Shown here: positions 1-31,870 of the stretch, piece by piece
How positions within the stretch are numbered: the first letter of the stretch is position 1
How the letters are laid out: the number at the start of each line of letters is the position of its first letter
Origin: Thermoplasmata archaeon
GTDB taxonomy: Archaea > Thermoplasmatota > Thermoplasmata > Halarchaeoplasmatales > Halarchaeoplasmataceae
Direction: 5' to 3'
NCBI GenBank assembly: GCA_046540335.1
Contig: JBKHFH010000001.1
Location: forward strand, 8,045-72,044
DNA: 64,000 nt
Translations under genes and position numbers: made by a program
Notes under the pieces: generated by a model
Told to the model about the DNA's origin: nothing
The model's database searches: none
Seen by the model: the letters and a program-made list of their open reading frames with translations, nothing else

Positions 1-103
1 GATTCATAATACCGGAAAGCACAACCCTTTTATACCACTTGGATTCTTAAGCGAAACCGCGCTATAAAACTCACTTCAGCAACATTAACATGGAGGAAAC
101 ACT

Positions 104-610
104 TTGCCTGAGGAAAAAGAAGATCAAGAAGAGGATGATTTCCAATACATCGTCCGGATGATGAATACCGACCTTGACGGAGATAAGCTAGTAGTCTATG
201 CTCTGAAAGACATAAAAGGAGTAGGCACTAGGGTCGCCGAGATGGTGGTCAACTCCACCGATGTGGATCCAAATGCCAAAATAGGATATCTAGAAGAGGA
301 AGATATAGATAAAGTTAAAAAATCTCTAGTCAATTTCACCGATCAGGCTCCATCGTGGGCCGTGAACAGAAAAAGAGACCCTGTAACTGGGGACAATGAC
401 CACGTACTCAAGAACGAGCTAGACACCGTCCACAGAGAAGATATAAACAGGATGCAGAAGATCAGTTCTTATAAAGGTATCAGACACGAGCGCGGTCAAA
501 AGGTCCGAGGGCAGAGAACGAAATCCAATGGAAGAACAGGTATGGAACTCGGAGTTGAAAAGAAGGTCGCTCGGGCTCAAGCTAGCGCAGGCGGCGAAGA
601 AGAGGAGTGA
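104..610 (+). CDS. rps13: 30S ribosomal protein S13 (uS13), with acidic C-terminal tail
   Basis: Typical S13 motifs (GVGTRVAEMV, KGIRHERGQKVRGQRTKSNGRTG). First gene of the conserved archaeal S13-S4-S11-RpoD operon. Confidence 0.9.
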   Translation: MPEEKEDQEEDDFQYIVRMMNTDLDGDKLVVYALKDIKGVGTRVAEMVVNSTDVDPNAKIGYLEEEDIDKVKKSLVNFTDQAPSWAVNRKRDPVTGDNDHVLKNELDTVHREDINRMQKISSYKGIRHERGQKVRGQRTKSNGRTGMELGVEKKVARAQASAGGEEEE

Positions 611-627
611 TCTAGAGGTGACATGAC

Positions 628-1224
628 ATGGGAGATCCAAAATTCAGTAGAAAAAAATTCGAAAAACCATCACACCCTTGGCAGGAAGAGCGTATAAAAG
701 AAGAGAACGATTATATCAGACATTATGCTCTGAAGAACAAAAAAGAATTCTGGAAAGCTAGATCCATCTTGAAGAACATACGGGCACAAGCAAGGAATCT
801 TCAAGCTCGCCTGAGGTACGGGGAAAAGCAGGCTAGAGAAGAGATGGATGCGCTTCTTGAAAAATTGAAGCATAAAGGATATCTTAAAGGCCAGGATCAT
901 ACTCTCAACGATGTTTTGAACTTGGGCGTTGAAAATATATTGAACAGAAGATTACAGACATTGGTCTATCACAAGGGATTGGCTCACTCAGCGAATCAGG
1001 CGCGGCAGTTCATCATCCACGGCCATATATCTGTCAACGGAAGAAAGGTTACGGTCCCGAGTTATATCGTTAATGAGGAAGAAGAGTCGACCATAGCTTA
1101 TTACCAAAATTCACCGCTTTCGGATGAACTCCATCCCGAGAGACCAGAAGAGGAAGTCACGCCGACTAGGATCCCAAAGATGATCGAAAATGACCAGGGT
1201 CAAGATAGCTATAATAGGAGATGA
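628..1224 (+). CDS. rps4: 30S ribosomal protein S4 (uS4)
   Basis: Archaeal S4 N-terminus ([17 protein letters not shown]) and an S4 RNA-binding domain. Operon position. Confidence 0.9.
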
Positions 1225-1613
1225 AATTTATGGGTAAATGGGGAATAGCTCACGTATACGCTTCTTACAACAATGTGATAATAACTATCACGGATATCAC
1301 AGGTGCTGAGACTCTCGCTAAATATTCAGGAGGAATGGTCGTAAGACAGGACAAAGACCAGTCATCACCTTATGCAGCGATGGAAGCAGCCGAAAAGGCT
1401 GTAAAGGAGGCAAAGGATAAAGGCGTAACTAAGTTACATGTTAAGATAAGAGCTCCCGGAGGCAGTAAATCTAGGTCTCCCGGACCAGGTTCTCAGGCCG
1501 CTATACGGGCCTTTGCCAGATCGGGTATGAAGATAGGTACTATAGAAGATGTTACACCGATACCCCATGATTCCACAAAAGCTAAAGGTGGAAGAAGGGG
1601 CCGACGTGTGTAG
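1221..1613 (+). CDS. rps11: 30S ribosomal protein S11 (uS11)
   Basis: S11 motifs ([21 protein letters not shown] ... KGGRRGRR). Overlaps S4 by 4 nt. Confidence 0.9.
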
Positions 1614-1631
1614 AGATAAGAAGGGTAAAAG

Positions 1632-2468
1632 ATGGAAATAGAAGCAAGAAAACTGGACGAAAGGAAAGCAGAATTATTGTTGTCAGACACTAATCCACCT
1701 ATGGCGAACGCACTGAGAAGAGTCTTGGTTGCTGATATACCGAAATTGGCTATTGAGGACGTCGAATTCCATCTGGGGACGATAGGTGGTGATGAGGATG
1801 AAAAGGAGTACGAAAGTGCGGCACCGCTTTTCGACGAGATAATAGCACATAGATTAGGGATGCTGCCCATCCCAACCGATCTAGAACTGTTCAGTTATAG
1901 GGACGAATGCCAGGAATGCGGCGGTGAAGGATGTCCGAACTGTACCGTGATATACAGCCTGAACAAGAAAGGGCCCTGCACGGTTTATTCTGGAGATCTC
2001 ATACCTGTGGGAGAGAACGACTTAAGACCAGTTGATGATCTCATCCCGATCGTGAAACTCAATGAAGATCAGGCTCTTCTGATGTACGCTACCGCTGAAC
2101 TCGGAACGGCCAAAGAACACGCTAAGTGGCAGCCGACGAGCGGTGTCTCCTACAAATATTATCCAGAGATAGATATCGATCAAAGTGAATGCAACGAGTG
2201 TGAAGAGTGCGTGGATGTCTGCCCTGTCGATATACTAGAGATCGAAGATGGAGAATTGGTGGTGACCGACGTAGAAAAATGCAAGCTTTGCTCCGCATGT
2301 GAAGAAGCCTGTGGCAGAGACGCTATTACCGTCGAAGGCCGCGATGACAAGTTCATACTCACCTTTGAGACCGATGGTTCTTTGGATACTGAACAAACAT
2401 TGAAGAAGGGACTCGAAGTGCTCGAGCAAAAGTTCGAGGATATGGTCGACCTCATAGAGGATATCTAG
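1632..2468 (+). CDS. rpoD: DNA-directed RNA polymerase subunit D (Rpo3) with ferredoxin-like 4Fe-4S insertion domain
   Basis: RpoD dimerisation motifs plus two CxxCxxCxxxCP cluster motifs (CNECEECVDVCP, CKLCSACEEAC) and a CxxCx5CxxC segment. Canonical position after S11. Confidence 0.88.
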   Translation: MEIEARKLDERKAELLLSDTNPPMANALRRVLVADIPKLAIEDVEFHLGTIGGDEDEKEYESAAPLFDEIIAHRLGMLPIPTDLELFSYRDECQECGGEGCPNCTVIYSLNKKGPCTVYSGDLIPVGENDLRPVDDLIPIVKLNEDQALLMYATAELGTAKEHAKWQPTSGVSYKYYPEIDIDQSECNECEECVDVCPVDILEIEDGELVVTDVEKCKLCSACEEACGRDAITVEGRDDKFILTFETDGSLDTEQTLKKGLEVLEQKFEDMVDLIEDI

Positions 2469-2652
2469 AAACTTCTGTCTATTCAATCAACAGATTTTAA
2501 ATATTTGAGATAGTTCTCTATCCACAAAAATAAGAAGAGAAAACAATTAATCTTTAGTGTGAGTGATGCAGAAAACCTTTCACACCCAACGCGAGTTACG
2601 CGGAAGTGATTTCCACTAACACGCAAGTTTCACTCGTAAACTCGTTCAACTT

Positions 2653-2664
2653 GCGAGGGTAGCC
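2653..2664 (+). repeat. Partial duplicate of tRNA-Leu nt 1-12 (GCGAGGGTAGCC), 52 nt upstream of the tRNA, embedded in an imperfect hairpin
   Basis: Exact 12-mer match to the tRNA 5' end at 2717-2728. The intervening sequence can pair GCGAG/CTCGC and CCGAGG/CCTCGG. Confidence 0.6.
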
Positions 2665-2716
2665 GAGGAATAAAATATTCCTCATTTCCCCTCGGTTTCT
2701 CGCATACGCTTCAAAC

Positions 2717-2801
<85 letters not shown>

Positions 2802-2907
2802 TTCAATTATCTTTCTGGATTTTTAGAGAAGGAGAAAAGTAAAGAGGAAATTTGTATACAACTTTATAGCTAATTAGAACCTTGCAAAAATATATGATAA
2901 GCTGTTA

Positions 2908-3099
2908 GTGAGGATATACGCCGACTCCTTCAAAAAGGATATTGCCATGGGTTATGGGGCTAGAGAATCCATAAGTAAGCTGGAGTTCCACTTTCAGGAC
3001 AACCTCCTAGCGAGGACATACAATAAGCTCAGACACATACGGCAGGGTGGTATTCTACTTCACCTGAAATTGAATCTAGATTTTGACGAGTTCGCCTGA
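2908..3099 (+). CDS. Hypothetical small ORF (63 aa) in the AT-rich spacer of the island; may be non-coding
   Basis: ORF track only. No recognisable motifs. Confidence 0.15.
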   Translation: MRIYADSFKKDIAMGYGARESISKLEFHFQDNLLARTYNKLRHIRQGGILLHLKLNLDFDEFA

Positions 3100-3400
3100 G
3101 ATCTAGCGGGAAAGACACAAGCAGGATGAAAACGAGTGGATTATAGTTGATTTAGAGAAAAAAGACTTTTATAAACTGCTTCTATTAGGATTAGCAATCA
3201 TTCACCCTTTTTTGGAAGAATAAAGCATAAGTGCAGATGATCTAATAGAGATTTACGATCGGCTGATCTCAACGAGACAAGAAATGACTTGAGTGCCGAC
3301 TAAGTTTTGATGAATGACTTGGACGAAAATACAGCAGGGTATATCGATTAAAATGACCCAGATACTGATGGATGAAAACCGATAGGTGAGAGATATAAGG

Positions 3401-3775
3401 CAGTATCACTCTTTCTCTTTGTATCCGGTTTTAGAGAGTAATTCGTCCATCTGCGCCGAATTCACACATTCCATCGCAACCTGGAGAAGGATGGCTTTAA
3501 AGAACTCTTCACCTTGATGGCTCTTTTTACATTCTGGACATATCTTTTTTTGGGGTAAATGTTTCCTGAAATCGGGATCATCTTTCATTTCATTGTATAT
3601 CTCTTCGGCAAAATCGATCAATTCGTTTCTTAACCCGGAGTCTTTAACGGCTCTCGAAACTTCTCTTCCTATACCTCTCATGTACCTGCGAGTGAAAACG
3701 AGGTCTCCCCAAACATCATCTCTGGTACCTATAGGGTTGTCCTCGTACATCGAGATCTCCTGGCAGGGCTGGTAA
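3401..3775. repeat. Direct repeat block A (copy 1), about 93-95% identical to 8031-8405. Covers the 3' half of the regulator gene
   Basis: Read directly: long collinear matching stretches with scattered mismatches. Confidence 0.85.
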
Positions 3776-4107
3776 TAACAGTACGACCTCCTTCCCATCT
3801 TATTTTTTCTTTTCTCTTCAGCTTCACCTTCCGTGGGACGACCCGGTTCGCTTTCTACATCCCGTTTTTCCTTTTTCTTATTGATTATACCTTGTCTCCA
3901 GAGATCTTTCACCGCAGAATAAATCGTAGATAGAGGCTGCCCGGTCTCTTCGGATATCTCCTGAGCCGTTATGCCTTCAAGACCGTTATTTCTGATAGCC
4001 TTCAAGCAGGCCCAAGTAGCTTCATTTCCGAGTACGTCTGCAGCCATGTCGCTGCTTACGGGGAAAAAATTGAGGTATTCCTTTTTCTCCATCGTATCAC
4101 GTTTCAT
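3406..4107 (-). CDS. Transcriptional regulator: N-terminal winged-HTH, Lys/Glu-rich linker, C-terminal domain with a CPECKK motif. Divergently transcribed from the surface-protein gene
   Basis: wHTH-like segment GITAQEISEETGQPLSTIYSAVKDLWRQGII. A C-terminal 3' fragment of the gene is duplicated at 8031-8415. Confidence 0.6.
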   Translation of the reverse strand: MKRDTMEKKEYLNFFPVSSDMAADVLGNEATWACLKAIRNNGLEGITAQEISEETGQPLSTIYSAVKDLWRQGIINKKKEKRDVESEPGRPTEGEAEEKRKNKMGRRSYCYYQPCQEISMYEDNPIGTRDDVWGDLVFTRRYMRGIGREVSRAVKDSGLRNELIDFAEEIYNEMKDDPDFRKHLPQKKICPECKKSHQGEEFFKAILLQVAMECVNSAQMDELLSKTGYKEKE

Positions 4108-4357
4108 GATTATGTAATTATATTATTTTAAATTTTTGTAATAACAAAATTATGTACCTAACGACTCGAGATTGGGTTGATATATTTTCTAGGGCATGAG
4201 AATTAAGTGAGGTAGATAAAATGAGAAGCCTAAAAATCGGGTTAGGAAGGAACCGCATGAGAAGGGAAATGAACGTAGAGATCGAATTGCAAGACGACCA
4301 GAAAAAGAAAAACTTTTTACGAAGAAGCAATAAGAAACCGTAGATAAGGTGATTAAT
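4108..4357. promoter_or_regulatory. Divergent promoter region between the regulator and the surface-protein gene. AT-rich, and contains a 40-aa upstream ORF (4221-4343, MRSLKIGLGRNRMRREMNVEIELQDDQKKKNFLRRSNKKP)
   Basis: Intergenic between divergent genes. Duplicated nearly identically upstream of the paralogous gene at 8461-8715. GGTGA Shine-Dalgarno before the ATG at 4358. Confidence 0.4.
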
Positions 4358-4432
4358 ATGAAAAAGAAAATATTTGTGTTTACTATCGCGCTTTCTCTGC
4401 TGCTCAGCGGGACGCTTGTCGTGGTCGGAGGC
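4108..4432. repeat. Direct repeat block B (copy 1), about 98% identical to 8461-8790. Covers the promoter, upstream small ORF and first 25 codons (signal peptide) of the surface-protein gene
   Basis: Read directly: about 270 nt identical from atatattttctagggcatgag to gtcgtggtcggaggcga. Confidence 0.9.
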
Positions 4433-5254
4433 GAACCGCGAGAGATGAACGAAAGGACAGAGATAAATCAAGATAGAACACCGACGGCTGAAGCCGAAGT
4501 AGATGATTCTGATCTGGGAAATATTTCTAATGAATATCCGTTCAAGGATGAGTATCCATCGGTAGGAGAGCTTTATGGATGGTATGAGGATTTGGAGAAA
4601 GAATATCCAAATTTGATACAAAATCACAGCTATGGGGAATCTTACAAGGGTTTAGATCTTTATGCGTGGGAGATAACCGCCGATAATGATACTGTTGTAG
4701 AGGAGAAGCCCACGGTTTTGGTCGATGCAACTATACATGCAAGAGAATGGTCAACCCCGCAGGTAGCGGCTTACTTCACTTGGAGACTCTTAGATGAATA
4801 CGACACAAATGAGACCATCAACTGGATTGTGAACAATAGGAGGATCTTTGTAGTTCCGATGGTGAATCCCGATGGGTATATTTACGACGGAAATGGAACA
4901 TTAGAGGAAAGAGAATATTGGCGAAAAAATCGCAATGACTCGACTCCTACAGACGCTATCGGTGTTGATCTAAATAGAAATTGGGATACCCATTGGGTGA
5001 AAGGTGATGATGAACCTTCAAATGAGACATATCATGGAGATGCTCCTTTTTCAGAAGCTGAAACTTATCACCTCAAGGAATTCATGATCGAAAATGAGAT
5101 AGATTCATATCAGAACCTTCACTCTCACTGGGGAACTTTATTGATTCCCTCTTCTAATATGACCGATCCAACACCACATGATGATTGGTACAGGGGTACG
5201 GCAGAACACACGACTTCTTTAACGACTATGTTGGGAGAGGACGAACAGTACTAA
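4358..5254 (+). CDS. N-terminal part of a secreted M14 zinc-carboxypeptidase / GLUG-repeat / PGF-CTERM surface protein: signal peptide plus most of the M14 domain, ending at an in-frame TAA (5252-5254)
   Basis: Signal peptide MKKKIFVFTIALSLLLSGTLVVVGG. M14 motifs HAREW, NPDGY, DLNRNW, HSHW. The ORF track start is GTG 4349; the ATG is at 4358. The reading frame continues in-frame past the TAA. Confidence 0.7.
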   Translation: MKKKIFVFTIALSLLLSGTLVVVGGEPREMNERTEINQDRTPTAEAEVDDSDLGNISNEYPFKDEYPSVGELYGWYEDLEKEYPNLIQNHSYGESYKGLDLYAWEITADNDTVVEEKPTVLVDATIHAREWSTPQVAAYFTWRLLDEYDTNETINWIVNNRRIFVVPMVNPDGYIYDGNGTLEEREYWRKNRNDSTPTDAIGVDLNRNWDTHWVKGDDEPSNETYHGDAPFSEAETYHLKEFMIENEIDSYQNLHSHWGTLLIPSSNMTDPTPHDDWYRGTAEHTTSLTTMLGEDEQY

Positions 5255-5275
5255 TACGGTCAACCTTATGAGGAA

Positions 5276-7840
5276 TTGGGTTATAGTCCTCCAGGGGCAG
5301 CTGATAGTTGGGTCTATGATGAAATAGGTGCACAAGCATATACATATGAGATTTACACCGGTGAGTATGAAGAAGATTTTGCTGAAGGATTCTACCCTCC
5401 AAAAGAAGACATCATGACCATCAATGAAGATCTAGATGATTCTCTTATATATCAGACCAGAGTAGCTGATGCTGATCTGGGAGATGGAGAAGATTTAGAG
5501 CATCCACCAGTCCCTTATTTGGTCTACGGTACGCTGGAAAATGAGGGGGGCGATCATCTTTCAGATATAGAGATTGAAGTAGAGAATCAAGAGACTGGGG
5601 AGAATCTATCTGTTGAGACAAACAGCAAAGGTTATTACGAACTAAATCTTGCGAATTTGATTGACCATGGTTATGAAATCGGTGACACTCTTTGCATTCA
5701 AATCGATCCAGGTACCACCATGATGAATTTTGACGTTGACGGAAACTGGGGTAAAAGGATAGACCTTGAATATACAGAGGGACCTCAAGTTACCACCGAA
5801 AGCGTATCCGCCTTGACTAACGAATCTGCAGAGTTTGAAGGTAGAGTTGAACTTGGAAATATGAGTTCCGTAGAAGGTTATTTCCAGTACCGTATGGAAG
5901 GGGAAGAGAGTTGGCAAGAAAGTGAGATAGAAGTCATCGAAGAGAATCGAACGTATGATATGGTCATAGATGGTATGGAATCAGATGAGAGCTATGAGGT
6001 TAGAGCATCTATAAAGTGTAACGAAGAGGAACAAGATTTTGGTAGGATATTGAGTTTTATAACTACGATTCATACATTAAACCTTGACTCAAGTATCGGT
6101 GGTGAAGTGATCAAACCTGGAGAGAGTGAATTTGAATATACATACGGCTCTGAGGTGACTATCGAAGCTTCTGCTGAGGAAAATTATGATTTCATCGAAT
6201 GGATCGGTGATGTCGATACAGTAGAAGATACTGAATCATCAGAAACAACGGTCGGGATCACTGATGATATAGAGATAACAGCACTTTTCCAAACAGGTGA
6301 AGGGTCTGAAGGAGATCCATACTTGATCGAAAATAGTCATCACCTGCAGAAGATGGAAGACAATTTAGAAGCTCATTATGAATTGGCTACCGATATAGAT
6401 GCGAGTGAAACTGAAGACTGGAACGATGGAAGAGGATTCGATCCAGTAGGTGATCAATATAATCCATTCGAAGGCACATTTGATGGTGGTAGGTATAAAA
6501 TCGATGACCTTCATATTAACCAAGAAAATATGGAATATACAGGTCTTTTTGGAGTCATAGGTGAAGGTAGCGAGGTAACGAATTTGGCCCTTGTAAATAT
6601 AAATGTAACCGGGAGTCATACTAGATCACATTGGGTCGGTGGACTTGCAGGAGGAAATTTAGGATTGATAAATAACACTTCCGTCTCAGGAGATGTGAAT
6701 AGTGGTGACGTCGCTGGTGGACTGATAGGGCAGGGCCCAGGCACAGTCAAAAATTCATATTCGACAGGGGATGTGACTGGAGCGCGATTTGTAGGAGGGT
6801 TGCAGGGAACGAGCAGCGGAAGTATCTTTACTTCTTACTCTTCTGCGAGAGTTGAAGGGACCGGTTCCGTCGGTGGCATTTTAGGTGGAAGTTGGGGAGT
6901 TATCGAGAACAGTTATGCTACAGGAGAAGTTGTCGGAGAAGATAATGTAGGTGGATTAGTTGGTCAGATAGGTATCCGGGTTAGAGGTTACAGTGATAGT
7001 GGCGAAGTTATCGATTCGTATTCTATAGGTAATGTTTCGGGTGATGATGAAGAAACACTCGGAGGTTTAGTAGGTTTCATAGAGCTAGGAGAGGTAACAG
7101 GTTCCTTCTGGAACGTAGAAACATCGGGGCAAGACGAATCTGATGGAGGTACTGGGCTACCCACTGCAGAGATGGTCAGAAGAGAGACTTTCACCGATGC
7201 AGGTTGGGATCTCGAAGAGAATTGGAATATCATCGAAGATGAAACTTATCCTTTCCTGCAGTGGCAAAAGGAAGATACATATCCCTACGCACCTGAACTA
7301 TACGAATTGACGATAAACATCGAAGGACAAGGCACGGTAGAAGTCTATGGAGAAGAAGTAGAAGACGGATGGACTCAAGAATACGTAGAAGGAACGGAGT
7401 TGACCCTCGAAGCGATCCCAGATGAAGGTTACGAGTTCGATGAATGGACAGGGACGGATCAGACAGGTGATGAGATAAACATAACGATGGACGAAGATAA
7501 AGATATCACGGCCCACTTCGAGGAGATCACATACAACCTGACATTTGTGGTAACAGACGAAGAGGGTGAGGCAATCGAGGGAGCAACAGTCACTGTAAGT
7601 GATGAGGAAGTGGAGACAAATGGGAGTGGCGAAGCGACCTTTGAACTTACGCAGGGAGATTACGACTACGAGGTCACCCATGACGACTATGAAAAAGAAA
7701 ATGGTATGATAGATAGCCTTGATGAAGAGAAGAAGGAAACTGTTGAACTTGAAGAGAGTAATGGAAGTCCCGGGTTTACTGTAGTACTGCTAGCACTCGG
7801 TGCGGTTATAGCCGTTGCGATCTATAAAAAGAAACGTTGA
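5276..7840 (+). CDS. C-terminal part of the same protein (same frame as 4358-5254): end of the M14 domain, transthyretin-like regulatory domain, InlB-B-repeat-like domains, DIDxSxTxxW domain, about 8 GLUG repeats, PGF-CTERM sorting signal
   Basis: Sequence from 5255 (YGQPYEELGYSPPGAADSWVYDE...AYTYEIYTGE) completes the M14 fold with Tyr248/Glu270 equivalents. GGLxG repeats. C-terminus PGFTVVLLALGAVIAVAIYKKKR. Confidence 0.7.
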   Translation: MGYSPPGAADSWVYDEIGAQAYTYEIYTGEYEEDFAEGFYPPKEDIMTINEDLDDSLIYQTRVADADLGDGEDLEHPPVPYLVYGTLENEGGDHLSDIEIEVENQETGENLSVETNSKGYYELNLANLIDHGYEIGDTLCIQIDPGTTMMNFDVDGNWGKRIDLEYTEGPQVTTESVSALTNESAEFEGRVELGNMSSVEGYFQYRMEGEESWQESEIEVIEENRTYDMVIDGMESDESYEVRASIKCNEEEQDFGRILSFITTIHTLNLDSSIGGEVIKPGESEFEYTYGSEVTIEASAEENYDFIEWIGDVDTVEDTESSETTVGITDDIEITALFQTGEGSEGDPYLIENSHHLQKMEDNLEAHYELATDIDASETEDWNDGRGFDPVGDQYNPFEGTFDGGRYKIDDLHINQENMEYTGLFGVIGEGSEVTNLALVNINVTGSHTRSHWVGGLAGGNLGLINNTSVSGDVNSGDVAGGLIGQGPGTVKNSYSTGDVTGARFVGGLQGTSSGSIFTSYSSARVEGTGSVGGILGGSWGVIENSYATGEVVGEDNVGGLVGQIGIRVRGYSDSGEVIDSYSIGNVSGDDEETLGGLVGFIELGEVTGSFWNVETSGQDESDGGTGLPTAEMVRRETFTDAGWDLEENWNIIEDETYPFLQWQKEDTYPYAPELYELTINIEGQGTVEVYGEEVEDGWTQEYVEGTELTLEAIPDEGYEFDEWTGTDQTGDEINITMDEDKDITAHFEEITYNLTFVVTDEEGEAIEGATVTVSDEEVETNGSGEATFELTQGDYDYEVTHDDYEKENGMIDSLDEEKKETVELEESNGSPGFTVVLLALGAVIAVAIYKKKR

Positions 7841-8030
7841 AGTATGGCTTGGGAGTAGAATCAAACCGTTTCCCCTTCATTTCTTTTATTTTTCTAAGAA
7901 TAAGTCCTTTCAACGTATCTAGAGTTTTTATCGCTCTCTTGCTACTGCTCAGAGGATTACTTTTTGCTGTTGTAGGCGAGAGAATAAAAAGAAAGTACAG
8001 ATAAGGGCAACCGAGAAAATGAACTATCAC

Positions 8031-8405
8031 TCTTTCTATTTATATCCGGTTTCAGAGAGCAAATCGTCCATCTGCGCCGAATTCACACACTCCACCGCCA
8101 CCTGGATAGAATGGCTTTAAAGAACTCTTCACCTTGATGGCTCTTTTTACATTCTGGACATATCTTTTTTTGGGGTAAATGTTTCCTGAAATCGGGATCA
8201 TCTTTCATTTCATTGTATATCTCTTCGGCAAAATCGATCAATTCGTTTCTTAACCCGGACTCTTTGACAGCTCTCGAAACTTCTCTTCCTATACCTCTCA
8301 TGTACTCGCGTGTGAAAACGAGGTCGCCCCAAACATCATCTCTGGTACCTATGGGGTTGCCCTCGTCTATCGAGATCTCCTGAGACGTGATAGCGGAGTA
8401 ATATT
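8031..8405. repeat. Direct repeat block A (copy 2)
   Basis: Collinear match to 3401-3775. Confidence 0.85.
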
Positions 8406-8415
8406 TCTGATAGCC
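8083..8415 (-). pseudogene. Truncated second copy of the regulator gene. Only the C-terminal roughly 110 codons are present, with no wHTH domain
   Basis: Minus-strand translation ...YQKYYSAITSQEISIDEGNPIGTRDDVWGDLVFTREYMRGIGREVSRAVKESGLRNELIDFAEEIYNEMKDDPDFRKHLPQKKICPECKK matches residues 110-220 of the 3406-4107 product. Homology ends abruptly upstream. Confidence 0.65.
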
Positions 8416-8460
8416 CCCATGCAGTTTTAGGCGGAGATCTTCTTTTTAATTCTATCAGTT

Positions 8461-8790
8461 TTCCTAATTCTGTAATTACATTATTTTATATTTTTGTAAT
8501 AACAAAATTATGTACCTAACGACTCGAGAGTGGGTTGATATATTTTCTAGGGCATGAGAATTAAGTGAGGTAGATAAAATGAGAAGCCTAAAAATCGGGT
8601 TAGGAAGGAACCGCATGAGAAGGGAAATGAACGTAGAGATCGAATTGCAAGACGACCAGAAAAAGAAAAACTTTTTACGAAGAAGCAATAAGAAACCGTA
8701 GATAAGGTGATTAATATGAAAAAGAAAATATTTGTGTTTACTATCGCGCTTTCTCTGCTGCTCAGCGGGACGCTTGTCGTGGTCGGAGGC
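8461..8790. repeat. Direct repeat block B (copy 2): promoter, upstream small ORF and signal-peptide codons
   Basis: About 98% identical to 4108-4432. Confidence 0.9.
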
Positions 8791-10346
8791 GAGGTGATGG
8801 ATGAAAGTGTTAGTAAAGATTTTAAAGAAGTTGAATCTGAGGCTACAGAAATCCAGGATTGGCACGACTTAGACGAGATAAGAGATGACTTAAGCAGCGA
8901 CTACGTTCTAGTTGACGAACTTGATGAAATACAGATGGTTATGAGGACTACAATGCTCAAAGAGAAGATCATGAAGTAGTATATTTTGCAGGATCAGACG
9001 AACACTGGAAAGACGGCGATACTATAGAAATAGAATATGGTGAAGATGAATATGATTCTGTTCTATCAGTCGAAGATGAAGAGGGCAACCCGATCAGTTA
9101 TACGGTAGAGCATCCTACAATAACAATAGAGGTGGACACCAGAGAAAGCCGTTTAGGTGTAAACTTCGAGAACGCCGTCGTAGGTTGGGAACCGATAGGG
9201 AACGATGAGAATCCATTTAACGGTACTTTCGACGGTAACGGTCATGATATAAGTGATTTAAATATAAAACGCGGTGGAACGTCCGGTATCGGAATATTTG
9301 GTTTTACCGGTCAAGAAGTTGAAATCAGAGATATCGGTCTTGTCGACTTAGAGGTGAAAGGATTAGGATACGTAGGTGGACTCGTGGGCTATAACAAGGG
9401 CAATATTTCCGATTCCTATGTAACAGGTGAGGTGAGCGGAGTTAGTTCTGTAGGCGGATTAGTTGGACTAAGCTTAGAAGGCGAGGTGAAGACCTCATAT
9501 GCGACAACTGATGTGAGCGGTATGGAGGGAATTCATGTAGGAGGACTCGTGGGACTAAGCCATAGTACGGTAAACGCATCGTATGCGACCGGTGACGTTA
9601 GTGGAGAGGGTCATTTAGGAGGACTCGTGGGACTAAGCCATAGTACGATATACGGATCGTATGCGACCGGTGATATTAACGGTGAAGAAAATGTGGGAGA
9701 ACTTGTAGGAAATAATGCAGGAATCTCGAAAGATTCTATTGAGAATTCCTATGCGACTGGTAACGTTAACGGTGAAGAATTTGTAGGAGGTCTCGTTGGA
9801 CATAACAAAGCTAACATTGAGAATTCGTATGCATCTGGGGACGTTAACGGCGAAAAATTTGTAGGAGGATTAGTAGGATTAAATTCTGCTGGACCTGGCC
9901 CAGGTTACCCTGATATGCCTTTTCCTTCAACTGTCAAAACGTCTTATGCGTCCGGTGAAGTGACCGGTGAAGAAAATGTGGGAGGACTAGTCGGATTGAG
10001 CGAGTCAGGCAATGTCACCCATTCTTACTGGGATATCGAAACTTCTGGAATTGAGGAGAGCGACGGTGGAACAGGCCTAACAACGGATGTGATGACAGGT
10101 GAAGAAGCTCCTAAAAACATGGACGGTTTTGACTTCGAAGAGGTCTGGGAGACTGTTGGGGAGGATGATGAAGATGCTGAAGAGAACGGCTATCCTATCT
10201 TACAGGAGTTGGACAGAGAAGAACAGCTCGAGGCTCAAAATATTTATGGAGATGATGACGGGATCCCAGGATTCACATCGTTACTCCTCTTAGTAGCTTC
10301 GATCATCGCAGTAGCTATCTACCAGAAGAAAAGTAAAAAGCGGTGA
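8716..10346 (+). pseudogene. Paralogous GLUG-repeat / PGF-CTERM surface protein without an M14 domain. Disrupted by a frameshift near 8930-8980: frame-1 ORF 8707-8979 carries the signal peptide, and the frame-0 ORF opens at 8928
   Basis: Identical signal peptide. N-terminal piece IQDWHDLDEIRDDLSSDYVLVDELD parallels IENSHHLQKMEDNLEAHYELATDIDAS of the paralog. The downstream frame carries WEPIGNDENPFNGTFDGNG, about 10 GGLVG repeats, and the C-terminus GIPGFTSLLLLVASIIAVAIYQKKSKKR. Confidence 0.65.
9540..9695 (+). repeat. Intragenic tandem duplication (2 x 78 nt = 2 x 26 aa GLUG units, near identical)
   Basis: ggaggactcgtgggactaagccatagtacg... occurs at 9540 and again at 9618 with few substitutions. 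Confidence 0.7.
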
Positions 10347-10489
10347 AAAGGATAGATACAACTGCTGCAACGAGAGATTAAAAAAACCCATTTCCTACTT
10401 CATTTTTTCTTATCAAAATGATGATTGAGTGAAATAGAGGATTTATTGTACAGAGATGATTTGAACAGTGGATTTGTATACAAATAGGC

Positions 10490-10511
10490 GTTAAATTCCC
10501 ATCCCTCGCAT
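10490..10511 (+). repeat. Degenerate direct repeat of the tRNA-Leu 3' end (17 of 22 nt, core cccNtccctcgcat). Candidate right boundary (attR-like) of the island
   Basis: gttaaattcccatccctcgcat at 10490-10511 versus ggttcgaatcccttccctcgcat at 2780-2802. Confidence 0.35.
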
Positions 10512-10590
10512 CTTTATTCTCTAATATTTTCTTAAAAGTATCCATAAGATAACCACCGAATCTTTAAGTATCCCAATATATAGCGGAACG

Positions 10591-11759
10591 ATGAAGAAAG
10601 TAAAACAGAAAACGGTAGCTCCAGCTTTCATATCTTTAGCTTGGTTGATCATATTTATCGGTAGATTGACTGGGCCCACCCTGTTAGTTGATATCGAGGA
10701 AAGTTTGAGTATCTCAGATGCTGAAGCAGGTATTGCCCTCTCAGCGATGTGGTTCCTCTATGGCGTCATGCAGTTCCCTGGAGGTGCTCTTTCAGACTCC
10801 TTCGGCAGGAAAAAAATCATCCTAGTTTCCATAGCTTCGTTCGGAGTAGCATCGATTCTTATAGGTACTACTCTTAACTACATAATGATGATAGTGACTT
10901 TCTCTCTACTAGGATTGGCGTTCCGGTCTTTTCCCCTCACCTAGCTTGACCATGTTATCTGAACTCTATAGAGATAAGAAGGGCAAGGCTTTAGGTATAA
11001 GATCGGGATTCGGCAGCCTTTCTGGTTTAGCTCCTATGGGTCTCCCTGTTCTGGCTTTTATGATAGGTTGGAGGAATATCTTTCTTTTCTACTCGGTAGT
11101 AGCGTTAGCTATAGGATATCTATTTTACGTTTTTGTTGAAGAGACTTTAGATGAACTCAAAAAGAGGTCCGGTCTCACCCAACTGAAGATGGGCCTCCGT
11201 TCCCTAACAGAAAAAAGAGACTTCTTTCATGTTCCTCATAAATCTGATCGTTTCATTTGCATGGATAGGGATGCTTTCCTGGTTCCCAACATATATACAG
11301 AAAAGCAAAGGCTTCAGTCCGGAGATAGCAGGAATACTTTTCTCTATAATATTATTAGGAGTAACAATTTTAAAACCGATCTTAGGGCACTTTTCCGATA
11401 GAGTGAATAAACTGTTCTTGATCCTTTTTCTGCTCATCACCGCCTCTATTTCGCTCTATCTTCTGACGATAACTGAAGGTCTCTTCTCATTAGGTATAAT
11501 CGCTTTCTTATTTTCACAGACAGGGGCTTTCTATCCGATAAGGACGTCCTATCTGACTGAAAAGTGGTACTCCAAGAACACTGGAACAAAACTGGGCGTC
11601 TTCAGATCTGGCATCATCTTGCTGGGTAGTCCGATCTCTGCGGTGATAGGATGGACTAAAACCATCTATAGTTTCGATACAGCGATTTTTCTCGTAGCTG
11701 GACTTTTATCTTTAGCCGCGGTACTGGTCCTAGGGAAGTTGATAATAGGGAGAAGATAG
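10591..11759 (+). pseudogene. MFS transporter gene disrupted by two frameshifts (three consecutive ORFs in three frames)
   Basis: ORFs 10591-10944, 10946-11401 and 11229-11759 together give about 390 aa of 12-TM MFS protein (GALSDSFGRKK motif). Confidence 0.65.
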
Positions 11760-11828
11760 ATCAAACTTAGATAACTTGTTCTAATTAACAAAAAAGATTT
11801 GTAGAATAGACTCTTTTCAAATGATAAT

Positions 11829-12581
11829 ATGATGGGAAGATTGGATAATAAAAAAGCTCTTATCACTGGTTCTTCAAGAGGTATAGGAAGAGCTATAGCA
11901 AAAAAGTTCGCAGAAGAAGGAGCTAAAGTAGGATTGAATTATCATTCTAGCGATGAGAAAGCACGTGAAGTTCTAGACTATGTCAATGATCATTCAGGTG
12001 GTCTGCTTCTCAAAGGGGATGTGAGTGAAAAAAGCGATTGTGAACGGATCGTACGGGAATTTGTAGATGAGTATGATGGCTTAGATATCCTTGTCAATAA
12101 TGCTGGGATACTAAAGTTAAAGAATTTAGAAAACTCTACTATCGAAACGTTCGATCGAACTATAGACGTCAATGTAAGAGGTCCGTTCATGATGTCTAAA
12201 TATTCCTTGGAACACCTAAAAGATTCAAACTCGGGCAGGATAATCAATATGTCATCTCATTGGGCATTCAGAGGTTCCGATCAGGCTACATCTTACGTTG
12301 TTAGTAAAACAGCACTCATCGGCTTGACCAGGGCTTTAGCTCTAGAGCTAGGACCGAAAGGTATAACTGTCAATGGTATCGCTCCTGGAACGATAGAGAC
12401 TGATATGGTCTCCGATCGCTACTCAAAAGAGGAAAAGAAGACCAGGATCAAAGAGATACCAGTTAAAAGACTTGGAAAACCAGAGGATATCGCAGATACC
12501 GCTCTCTTTTTAGCATCGGATGAAGGAGATTATGTCAACGGAGAGATCATAGGTGTCAACGGCGGGGTAACTATCCATTGA
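11829..12581 (+). CDS. Short-chain dehydrogenase/reductase, FabG-like
   Basis: TGSSRGIGRAIA cofactor motif, NNAG, and a catalytic S...YxxxK motif (YVVSK). Confidence 0.85.
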   Translation: MMGRLDNKKALITGSSRGIGRAIAKKFAEEGAKVGLNYHSSDEKAREVLDYVNDHSGGLLLKGDVSEKSDCERIVREFVDEYDGLDILVNNAGILKLKNLENSTIETFDRTIDVNVRGPFMMSKYSLEHLKDSNSGRIINMSSHWAFRGSDQATSYVVSKTALIGLTRALALELGPKGITVNGIAPGTIETDMVSDRYSKEEKKTRIKEIPVKRLGKPEDIADTALFLASDEGDYVNGEIIGVNGGVTIH

Positions 12582-12600
12582 AGTGAATTGATAAAAGCAG

Positions 12601-12685
12601 CGCCGAGAAGGGGATTCGAACCCCTGTGGTGCAAGGCACCACGAGATCTCCAATCTCGCGCCGTACCAGGCTAGGCTATCTCGGC
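12601..12685 (-). tRNA. tRNA-Ser (anticodon GGA), class II
   Basis: Minus strand reads GCCGAGATAGCCTAGCCTGGTA...CGAGA-TTGGAGA-TCTCG, then a long variable arm TGGTGCCTTGCACCACA, T-arm GGGGTTCGAATCCCC, and acceptor TCTCGGC. Confidence 0.85.
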
Positions 12686-31666: not shown

Positions 31667-31870
31667 CTTTCACCTTGACTGATTATGAGGATTCATTAAC
31701 TGCTGATAAGGTCGAGGGGTATTAAAAATTAACCCTGCTGTTTTTGCGTCTGTTTGACAACAATACATATATACCACGTATCCCTAAAAATCGTTTAGTC
31801 GCGGGTGTAAGACCCGCTGGAGATGTGCCCAAAATTTGGGTGAATCCAGAAACGGTAATAACGTGGTATC

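Follow-up and report, generated by a model that had tools for sequence, protein, structure and literature searches.

Within a 64 kb stretch of DNA from an uncultured halophilic Thermoplasmata archaeon (contig JBKHFH010000001.1; hereafter the window), parts of a regulator gene, together with the divergent promoter, leader and signal-peptide codons that adjoin it, are present twice, in front of two different GLUG-repeat surface-protein genes, referred to here as gene 1 and gene 2. The mosaic identity of the two copies, and the conflict between trees of their different segments, point, as far as sequence comparison goes, to an old duplication with gene conversion acting on it recently. The probable history is that the module was duplicated onto gene 2 long ago, that two tracts within it were converted ectopically in recent times, and that the locus has decayed, with nothing programmed in the process. 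Source names and homologues place the organism near the halophilic 'Ca. Halarchaeoplasmatales' group (PMC11332174).

The extent of the duplication was measured by BLAST of the window against itself and by global alignment, using the designations c1 for copy 1 (3404-4434 side) and c2 for copy 2 (8025-8792 side). Two direct-repeat blocks were recovered, each present twice (Table 1), as a sequence-only reading of the same DNA had described. The copies of block A are 93.9% identical over 359 columns with a single 1-nt gap (E 2e-155), and those of block B align without gaps over 340 nt at 97.6% identity (E 3e-165); neither block has a further copy in the 64-kb window. The identities estimated earlier (∼93-95% for A and ∼98% for B) were correct, and the block coordinates were accurate to within ∼15-25 nt, the worst case being the right end of block A, which was 23 nt off. 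Block B also holds what had been claimed for it, namely the divergent promoter, an upstream open reading frame (ORF) of 40 aa and ∼25 signal-peptide codons, and the downstream ORFs do diverge right after the signal peptide: the first 26 codons of genes 1 and 2 are common to both (MKKKIFVFTIALSLLLSGTLVVVGGE), and directly past 4434/8792 the genes cannot be aligned. The earlier statement that B is more alike than A stands as measured, but is incomplete. Indeed, pairwise alignment, proposed at the time as a check, revealed that identity is not uniform. Of 698 aligned sites, 29 are mismatched, and these fall in clusters, leaving two mismatch-free runs of 262 nt (4173-4434) and 149 nt (3491-3639), each 100% identical, with the remainder being only 89-91% identical. 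Permutation returned P = 2.5e-5 for a run of at least 262 nt, and P = 2e-4 within block A alone.

The window was compared with related loci, two of which, L001 and L002, are strain-level sequences derived, like the window itself, from metagenome assemblies (metagenome-assembled genomes, MAGs). L001 (GCA_048619855.1) corresponds to window positions 2716-8544 and L002 (GCA_046539565.1) to positions 1-12653, each with 6 differences. Locus L007 (JAZKSP010000031.1; 91% identical to the window) has a single cassette and an intact M14-GLUG protein of 1289 aa, whereas L006 (SRR21053862; 88% identical) has the same regulator, promoter and signal peptide with a different mature N-terminus. In L003/L008 (CAYWJQ010000012.1; 77% identical) the module lies beside a PQQ beta-propeller gene and the regulator contains an in-frame TAG, while L009 (CAYWJQ010000005.1), from the genome of L008, has a promoter block 84% identical to that of the window, without a regulator, ahead of a small GLUG gene. 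Finally, L011 (ERZ27266011; 84% identical over the body of gene 2) has an intact gene 2 orthologue (77% identical at the amino acid level) with a short promoter of its own and different signal-peptide DNA.

A per-segment identity matrix with L007, L006 and L003 revealed that c1 and c2 are 89-91% identical in the flanking segments (A-left, A-right and B-left) and 99-100% identical in the A and B cores, whereas the identity of c1 to L007 is 92-95% in flanks and cores alike. The tree accordingly switches by segment: in the flanks c1 is closer to the L007 orthologue, and in the cores c1 and c2 are sisters. At sites 3432, 3640, 3686, 3687, 4093, 4094 and 4131, c2 agrees with L006 and c1 with L007, the c2 state at 3686 and 3687 being common also to L003. 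Conversely, derived states common to both copies are found in the cores, at 3566, 3580 and 4370 and at 21 B-core sites. Across the leader and signal-peptide codons, 21 of 262 sites differ between the window and L007, some of them synonymous, as against none of the 262 between the paralogues. The proposal in the sequence-only reading that gene conversion or recombination acts on the module is upheld by the non-uniform mismatches, by the switching of the tree relative to L007, and by the gene 2 orthologue of L011 having a 5' end unlike that in the window. Since the A core resembles L007 at 95%, as c1 does elsewhere, copy 1 was probably the donor.

Nucleotide homology between L011 and the window starts at 8781, in the last 12 nt of block B. 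Because the gene 2 orthologue of L011 has its own promoter and signal-peptide DNA, the module appears to have been grafted onto gene 2. A unit comprising the regulator gene, promoter, leader and signal-peptide codons would have been copied anciently onto the GLUG gene next to it, at its 5' end, with the right-hand junction in the conserved ..VGGE signal-peptide codons, and the graft would have put genes 1 and 2 under the same control. This event would be older than the split from the L007 lineage, in which cassette 2 would have been lost by a deletion fusing gene 1 to the gene 2 anchor. In the window lineage the second regulator would have been functional for a time and then decayed through deletions, its loss being attributable to one copy acting in trans being sufficient, and ectopic gene conversion (homology-driven and non-reciprocal) between the direct repeats would recently have re-homogenised 3491-3639 and 4173-4434. 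We infer the recent timing of conversion, and its non-adaptive nature, from these patterns. As regards L007, its last 29 residues and 3' flank match the tail and flank of window gene 2. Comparison of L007 4878-5273 with window 7301-7525 and 10263-10416 showed a single gene in which the gene 1 body is joined to gene 2's PGF tail and 3' flank; this joined gene could stem either from deletion of cassette 2 and most of gene 2, or represent the ancestral state.

Table 1. Features of the duplicated module and the genes adjoining it (window coordinates).
Feature	Position	Strand	Description	Basis
Block A, copy 1	3404-3762		3' half of regulator gene; includes 100%-identical core 3491-3639	BLAST, alignment
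Block A, copy 2	8025-8382	(-)	Remnant of second regulator gene, C-terminal half only	
Block B, copy 1	4095-4434		Regulator gene start, divergent promoter, leader, signal-peptide codons	
Block B, copy 2	8453-8792		Palindrome 8492-8507, upstream ORF 8579-8701, signal-peptide codons from 8716	
Regulator copy 1, intact	3406..4107	(-)		ORF, Pfam, family alignment, AlphaFold (AF2), Foldseek, PDB sequence matches
Degenerate stretch	8383..8452		70 nt replacing ∼330 nt (3763-4094) of copy 1, DNA-binding-domain part	
72-codon ORF	8083-8301	(-)	In copy 2 remnant; encodes C..C..SH domain alone; called as a gene in L001 and L002	
Conserved bidirectional promoter/operator region, predicted	4108..4226		∼120 nt	Alignment, genome scan
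16-bp palindrome, candidate operator	4134..4149 and 8492..8507		TTTTGT-AATA-ACAAAA (TTTTGTAATAACAAAA), perfect 6-4-6	
Upstream ORF	4221..4343 and 8579..8701	(+)	40 codons; purine-rich GAGGT 8 nt before ATG	
Gene 1	4358..7840	(+)	Signal peptide, M14 carboxypeptidase, InlB B-repeats, GLUG repeats, CarboxypepD_reg, PGF/transmembrane (TM)/basic tail	Pfam
Gene 2	8716..10346	(+)	Signal peptide, GLUG-family N-terminal domain, GLUG repeats, PGF/TM/basic tail	

The intact regulator of copy 1, a lineage-specific protein of two domains, is 233 aa in length from the ATG at 4107, or 228 aa from the ATG at 4092, which is the annotation in related assemblies, and consists of an N-terminal winged helix-turn-helix (wHTH) and a C-terminal helical domain. 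The wHTH domain is recognised both by sequence and by fold: Pfam HTH_24 scored 24.4 bits, above its cut-off of 21.9, and TrmB 25.0 bits, just under its cut-off of 25.6, a PDB profile match to 2lvs (E = 8e-15) covers residues 31-82, and the best Foldseek matches of the AF2 model (pLDDT 87) are wHTH regulators aligned over the N-terminal domain only. The C-terminal domain contains family-invariant PWG and C..C..SHE..EF motifs and has no relative in Pfam or among solved structures in the PDB. The family is small, with 63 clusters at E < 1e-3 among 1.8 billion protein representatives. The pairing of the same regulator with GLUG/PGF-CTERM genes elsewhere, for which the sequence-only reading advised a search, held in part, in that L007 has the M14-GLUG gene, but the partner is a PQQ propeller in L003/L008, and a 42%-identical family member adjoins an ABC transporter as opposed to surface proteins, and on the strength of this member a general pairing of the family with GLUG genes was rejected.

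The second regulator gene, conversely, is a pseudogene of which only the C-terminal half survives. Alignment indicates that only TATTTCTGATAGCC is still recognisable within the degenerate stretch, and the remnant has in addition lost 1 nt between 8106 and 8107, opposite 3486, and one of its codons has turned into a stop. Codon differences between c1 and c2 in block A comprise 11 synonymous and 9 non-synonymous changes, and since these lean towards the synonymous, c2 was presumably long under purifying selection as a working gene. Two other observations concern this gene and its surroundings. The regulator orthologue at L003 9765-10450, found also in L004 and L005, has in all three assemblies its in-frame TAG at a family-conserved Trp (..GNEAT*DCLK..), and remnants of a GLUG-family N-terminus (..IEIYD(W/R)LISTRQEMT*) adjoin the 3' end of the regulator gene in the window (3242-3292), L007 (87-281) and L006, with a truncation point that varies by lineage.

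The region between the regulator and gene 1 is near invariant from 4108 to 4226 in an alignment of six sequences, despite coding DNA that is only 55-92% identical. It contains AT-rich, TATA-like boxes near 4113-4133 and 4176-4190, a block reading CTCGAGATTGGGTTGATATATTTTCTAGGGC and the GAGGT..ATG start. The palindrome, found twice in the window where chance would predict 0.13 copies, is identical across all 10 loci that bear the promoter and was detected also by an inverted-repeat search; it may represent the operator of the regulator, located within a predicted bidirectional promoter. The full promoter block is present in both copies, and because each has its own, the arrangement is not one of a single expression site serving silent cassettes. 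Elsewhere, the block precedes the M14-GLUG gene (L007), the PQQ beta-propeller (L003/L008) and the small GLUG gene that has no adjacent regulator (L009); its presence at this second, regulator-less locus in the genome of L008 would fit control in trans, and hence a small regulon. At L009 itself, the small GLUG gene (4192-5195), which encodes a PGF-like tail, has a start that is out of frame by one A, with an A6 run directly after the ATG.

Beyond 4226, conservation across lineages drops fast, to 55-66% versus L003 and L009, and the two modules of the L008/L009 genome are mutually only 66-81% alike, such that selection on the promoter does not account for leader and signal-peptide codons being 100% identical between the two window copies. 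The leader of copy 1 (140 nt) matched nothing in Rfam down to E = 1 and showed no RNA folding signal (z = 0.02), and an RNA element was rejected on these grounds. The start of the upstream ORF (GAGGT-N8-ATG; 4209-4343 and 8567-8701) is invariant in the window, L007, L003 and L009, and the frame stays open until just before the main start codon in the four lineages, for which the chance is ∼6% per sequence. The encoded peptide is basic but not conserved, and with 8 non-synonymous against 4 synonymous changes relative to L007 it was rejected as a conserved small protein.

Both surface-protein genes are inactivated in the window strain. Gene 1 is broken in the window and in L002, where a TAA interrupts the frame at 5252-5254; L001 has TCA (Ser) at this codon and an intact gene 1 encoding 1160 aa, and L007 likewise has Ser. 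Recoding of the TAA was rejected, given the TCA at the same codon in the sister strain. The gene is thus polymorphic (TAA in the window and L002, TCA in L001) among strains with 99.9% identity. A frameshift in gene 2, caused by a 1-nt deletion near 8926-8930 (GAAGAT to GAAAT), splits it into ORFs at 8707-8979 and 9132-10346, whereas an intact orthologue (P0004; 77% aa identity) spans the break as ..DLDEDTDGYEDY... A programmed frameshift was rejected, this being a plain 1-nt deletion outside any repeat run. The lesions in L002 are identical to those of the window.

Both proteins end in a tripartite tail of PGF motif, hydrophobic helix and basic end (..GSPGFTVVLLALGAVIAVAIYKKKR and ..GIPGFTSLLLLVASIIAVAIYQKKSKKR). 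Their earlier designation as PGF-CTERM surface proteins is appropriate to this architecture, but the PGF-CTERM model TIGR04126 scored only 7 bits on the gene 1 tail, below the cut-off of 24.5, and gave nothing on the gene 2 tail at E values up to 10. The best matches, Heimdall-CTERM (19.6 and 18.9 bits for genes 1 and 2, respectively; cut-off 24) and Loki-CTERM (15.6 and 19.3 bits; cut-off 19.9), likewise fell below threshold. None of the M14 homologues of gene 1 (∼41-64% identity; full-length proteins of 570-830 aa) has a precomputed GLUG (PF07581) annotation, so that gene 1 has the appearance of two fused surface-protein types.

A more far-reaching interpretation was considered also, in which the promoter/operator, leader and signal-peptide codons form a portable module of an uncharacterised wHTH + C..C..SH regulator family, repeatedly grafted by recombination onto surface adhesins (M14-GLUG, GLUG and PQQ propeller) and uniting them in one regulon in halophilic Thermoplasmata. 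Conversion, gene-fusing deletions as in L007, and nonsense or frameshift alleles would then together yield strain-level surface variation, and the C-terminal-domain remnant of 72 codons could even serve as an anti-regulator. This interpretation is possible, albeit rather unlikely.

Four points weigh against an old duplication with recent conversion. Firstly, the three strain-level sequences are all MAGs, and short-read assemblers can flatten the differences between near-identical repeats. Secondly, three non-synonymous changes (3554/3566/3580 = 8174/8186/8200) that set L002 apart from the window are found alike in copy 1 and copy 2, which is the pattern of a collapsed bubble, and the figure of 100% may be inflated as a result. 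Thirdly, either a graft onto gene 2 or a loss of the module in the L011 lineage would account for the state of L011. Fourthly, faster, relaxed evolution of c2 as a pseudogene could overstate its outgroup position.

The first two points bear on whether the paralogous segments, although genuine, owe their identical cores to merged repeat paths, in which case a simple old duplication, its divergence more or less even or shaped by selection alone, with no recent exchange would suffice. Besides every source being a MAG, and the triple change in L002 falling within 27 nt in both copies, which is the size of one graph bubble, the L001 contig breaks within block B (at 8544, 55 nt past the last copy-specific site common to copy 2, while carrying the copy 1 base at 8530), and the repeats contain 9 of the 12 strain-level differences. 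The repeat patterns of L001 and L002 are expected from ongoing conversion with varying tract ends, and also from collapsed repeat bubbles. However, flanks of ∼10% divergence were kept separate in three independent assemblies, and, had the cores diverged to a similar degree (∼15 and 26 differences), they would not have been collapsed unnoticed; moreover, the arrangement is repeated in the window, in L002 and, from gene 1 to block A/B-left of copy 2, in L001, and even a residual core difference of 1-2% would leave a strong mosaic. Because the divergent flanks were assembled apart three times, the contrast in identity between cores and flanks is real, although the exact figure of 100% may not be. 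An assembly artefact is thus an unlikely source of the mosaic.

It is also quite improbable that a single recent transplant of the module to the front of gene 2 occurred with no later conversion, the uneven identity then being the product of purifying selection acting on promoter, leader and signal peptide and of neutral decay in the remainder. Such a scheme would be in keeping with the strong constraint on the promoter core across lineages and with the lack of the module at the gene 2 orthologue. However, the perfect 149-nt core belongs to a regulator remnant that is dead and should not be under selection, and the leader and signal-peptide codons that are free of differences between the paralogues differ from those of L007 at synonymous sites included. 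Additionally, in the flanks c2 is farther from c1 than L007 is, and shares older states with L006 and L003, while the synonymous bias of the block A differences argues for a long functional life of c2.

The sequence-only reading had gone further, to suggest that recombination between the B repeats would delete gene 1, the M14-GLUG gene, and leave gene 2 preceded by the intact regulator and promoter, as a possible mechanism of surface variation by cassette exchange. The geometry is as proposed, and such a deletion is formally possible, direct repeats of 262-340 nt being adequate substrates. However, the undeleted arrangement is found in all three near-identical assemblies, and no recorded contig joins the intact regulator to gene 2. 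Exact-protein look-ups, made with the 72-aa remnant and the pieces of gene 2, returned L001 and L002 only, and scans of JGI metagenomes with promoter patterns revealed no deletion variant, so that a variant joining 4108 to 8790 in related strains, proposed earlier as something to look for, was not found in the three assemblies or by protein look-up. The only structural variant encountered, L007, is of a different kind. Nor was a recombinase or integrase domain detected among all ORFs and called genes of window positions 1-16.8 kb, the genes there encoding ribosomal proteins, RpoD, the regulator, M14/GLUG proteins, MFS, SDR, Cbf5, Cmk and SecY. Together with the two full promoters and the inactivation of gene 1, gene 2 and the second regulator, these observations do not support a programmed surface-switching device.

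The least probable of the alternatives, and one given very little credence here, is that the B (and A) direct repeats act as switches that move a single working regulator and promoter between adhesin genes by deletion, amplification or conversion, with nonsense and frameshift alleles adding on/off variation, since the flanking of gene 1 by direct repeats, its TAA/TCA polymorphism between near-identical strains, the other structural outcome seen in a relative (fusion of gene 1 to the gene 2 anchor in L007), the one-A frameshift in the A6 run of L009 and the common 5' untranslated region and signal peptide of the Mycoplasma vsp/vpma families (PMC2268961) are set against the lack of a deletion junction in any assembly or protein look-up and of a recombinase gene nearby, a complete promoter in each copy, a family of only two members, a gene 2 frameshift outside any repeat tract, and decay of the adjacent MFS gene, which suggests general erosion of the island.

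The locus forms an accessory surface-protein island between tRNA-Leu (2717-2801) and tRNA-Ser (12600-12685). Pseudogenes are concentrated in 3.4-11.8 kb, whereas the remaining 48 kb of the window are densely packed with intact ORFs. The MFS transporter gene (10591-11759) is split into three overlapping or adjacent ORFs of 117, 151 and 176 aa, and the pieces of 117 and 176 aa were likewise called in L002, an independent assembly, marking it as another pseudogene of the island. Poor sequence quality is an unlikely cause of the pseudogenes, given the intact ORFs of the other 48 kb and the same lesions in L002. Origin from a mobile element or virus was rejected: there is no recombinase (1-16.8 kb), the GC content is 40-45% throughout, and no viral contig was matched. 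Upstream of tRNA-Leu, a segment of ∼190 nt (2523-2715) is present in the window and L002 and absent from L001; it holds a 12-nt copy (2653-2664, GCGAGGGTAGCC) of the tRNA-Leu 5' end, and may be the scar of an old insertion beside the tRNA. Far from the island, 31801-31851 (+) matches the Rfam eL15-Euryarchaeota ribosomal protein leader (36.8 bits; cut-off 33.7).

Among described systems, the closest analogue is the tandem lipoprotein-like (lpl) paralogue cluster of S. aureus, in which the conserved, evolving unit consists of the 3' end of one ORF, the intergenic region and the next ORF's 5' end (Tsuru & Kobayashi 2008, PMC2568036). There too, the unit moved by recombination within a surface-protein island is not a gene, and segments within the locus are phylogenetically incongruent. 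However, the lpl genes are same-strand paralogues with a central conserved region that recombines, known from many copies and genomes, whereas the ORF upstream in the window is a divergently transcribed regulator, and there are two copies only, one of them decayed. The vsp/vpma/vsa loci of Mycoplasma, which rely on one promoter, a recombinase gene beside them and Xer-type site-specific inversion (PMC2268961), resemble the window in combining a conserved 5' untranslated region and signal-peptide coding sequence with unrelated mature parts. In the window, conversely, the repeats are direct and come each with a separate promoter, there is no recombinase in the vicinity, and switching has not been observed. 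As in ectopic gene conversion generally, identical tracts lie within older, diverged duplicates, and there the paralogues are closer than the orthologues. In Haloferax volcanii, gene conversion equalises genome copies (PMC11276520), whereas paralogous loci are concerned here and conversion is deduced from sequence alone. Finally, the N-terminal wHTH, divergent target and lineage-conserved 6-4-6 palindrome between AT-rich boxes recall MarR/TrmB/ArsR-like divergent pairs, from which the regulator of the window differs in its C-terminal domain (PWG, C..C..SHE..EF), which is without a Pfam or PDB relative, and in its small family.

The case is an ordinary process among paralogues, known in kind, within a decaying surface-protein island, and it provides no evidence for a new switching mechanism. 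Nevertheless, if the conversion tracts hold on single molecules, the locus would be a clean archaeal case in which the evolving unit comprises the end of a regulator, a promoter and a signal peptide. Units of this sort are well described in bacterial surface-protein clusters, but hardly described for archaea. A by-product of the analysis is a candidate regulon in an uncultured halophile lineage, in which an invariant 16-bp palindrome accompanies a regulator family that is small and uncharacterised, with several surface proteins as targets.

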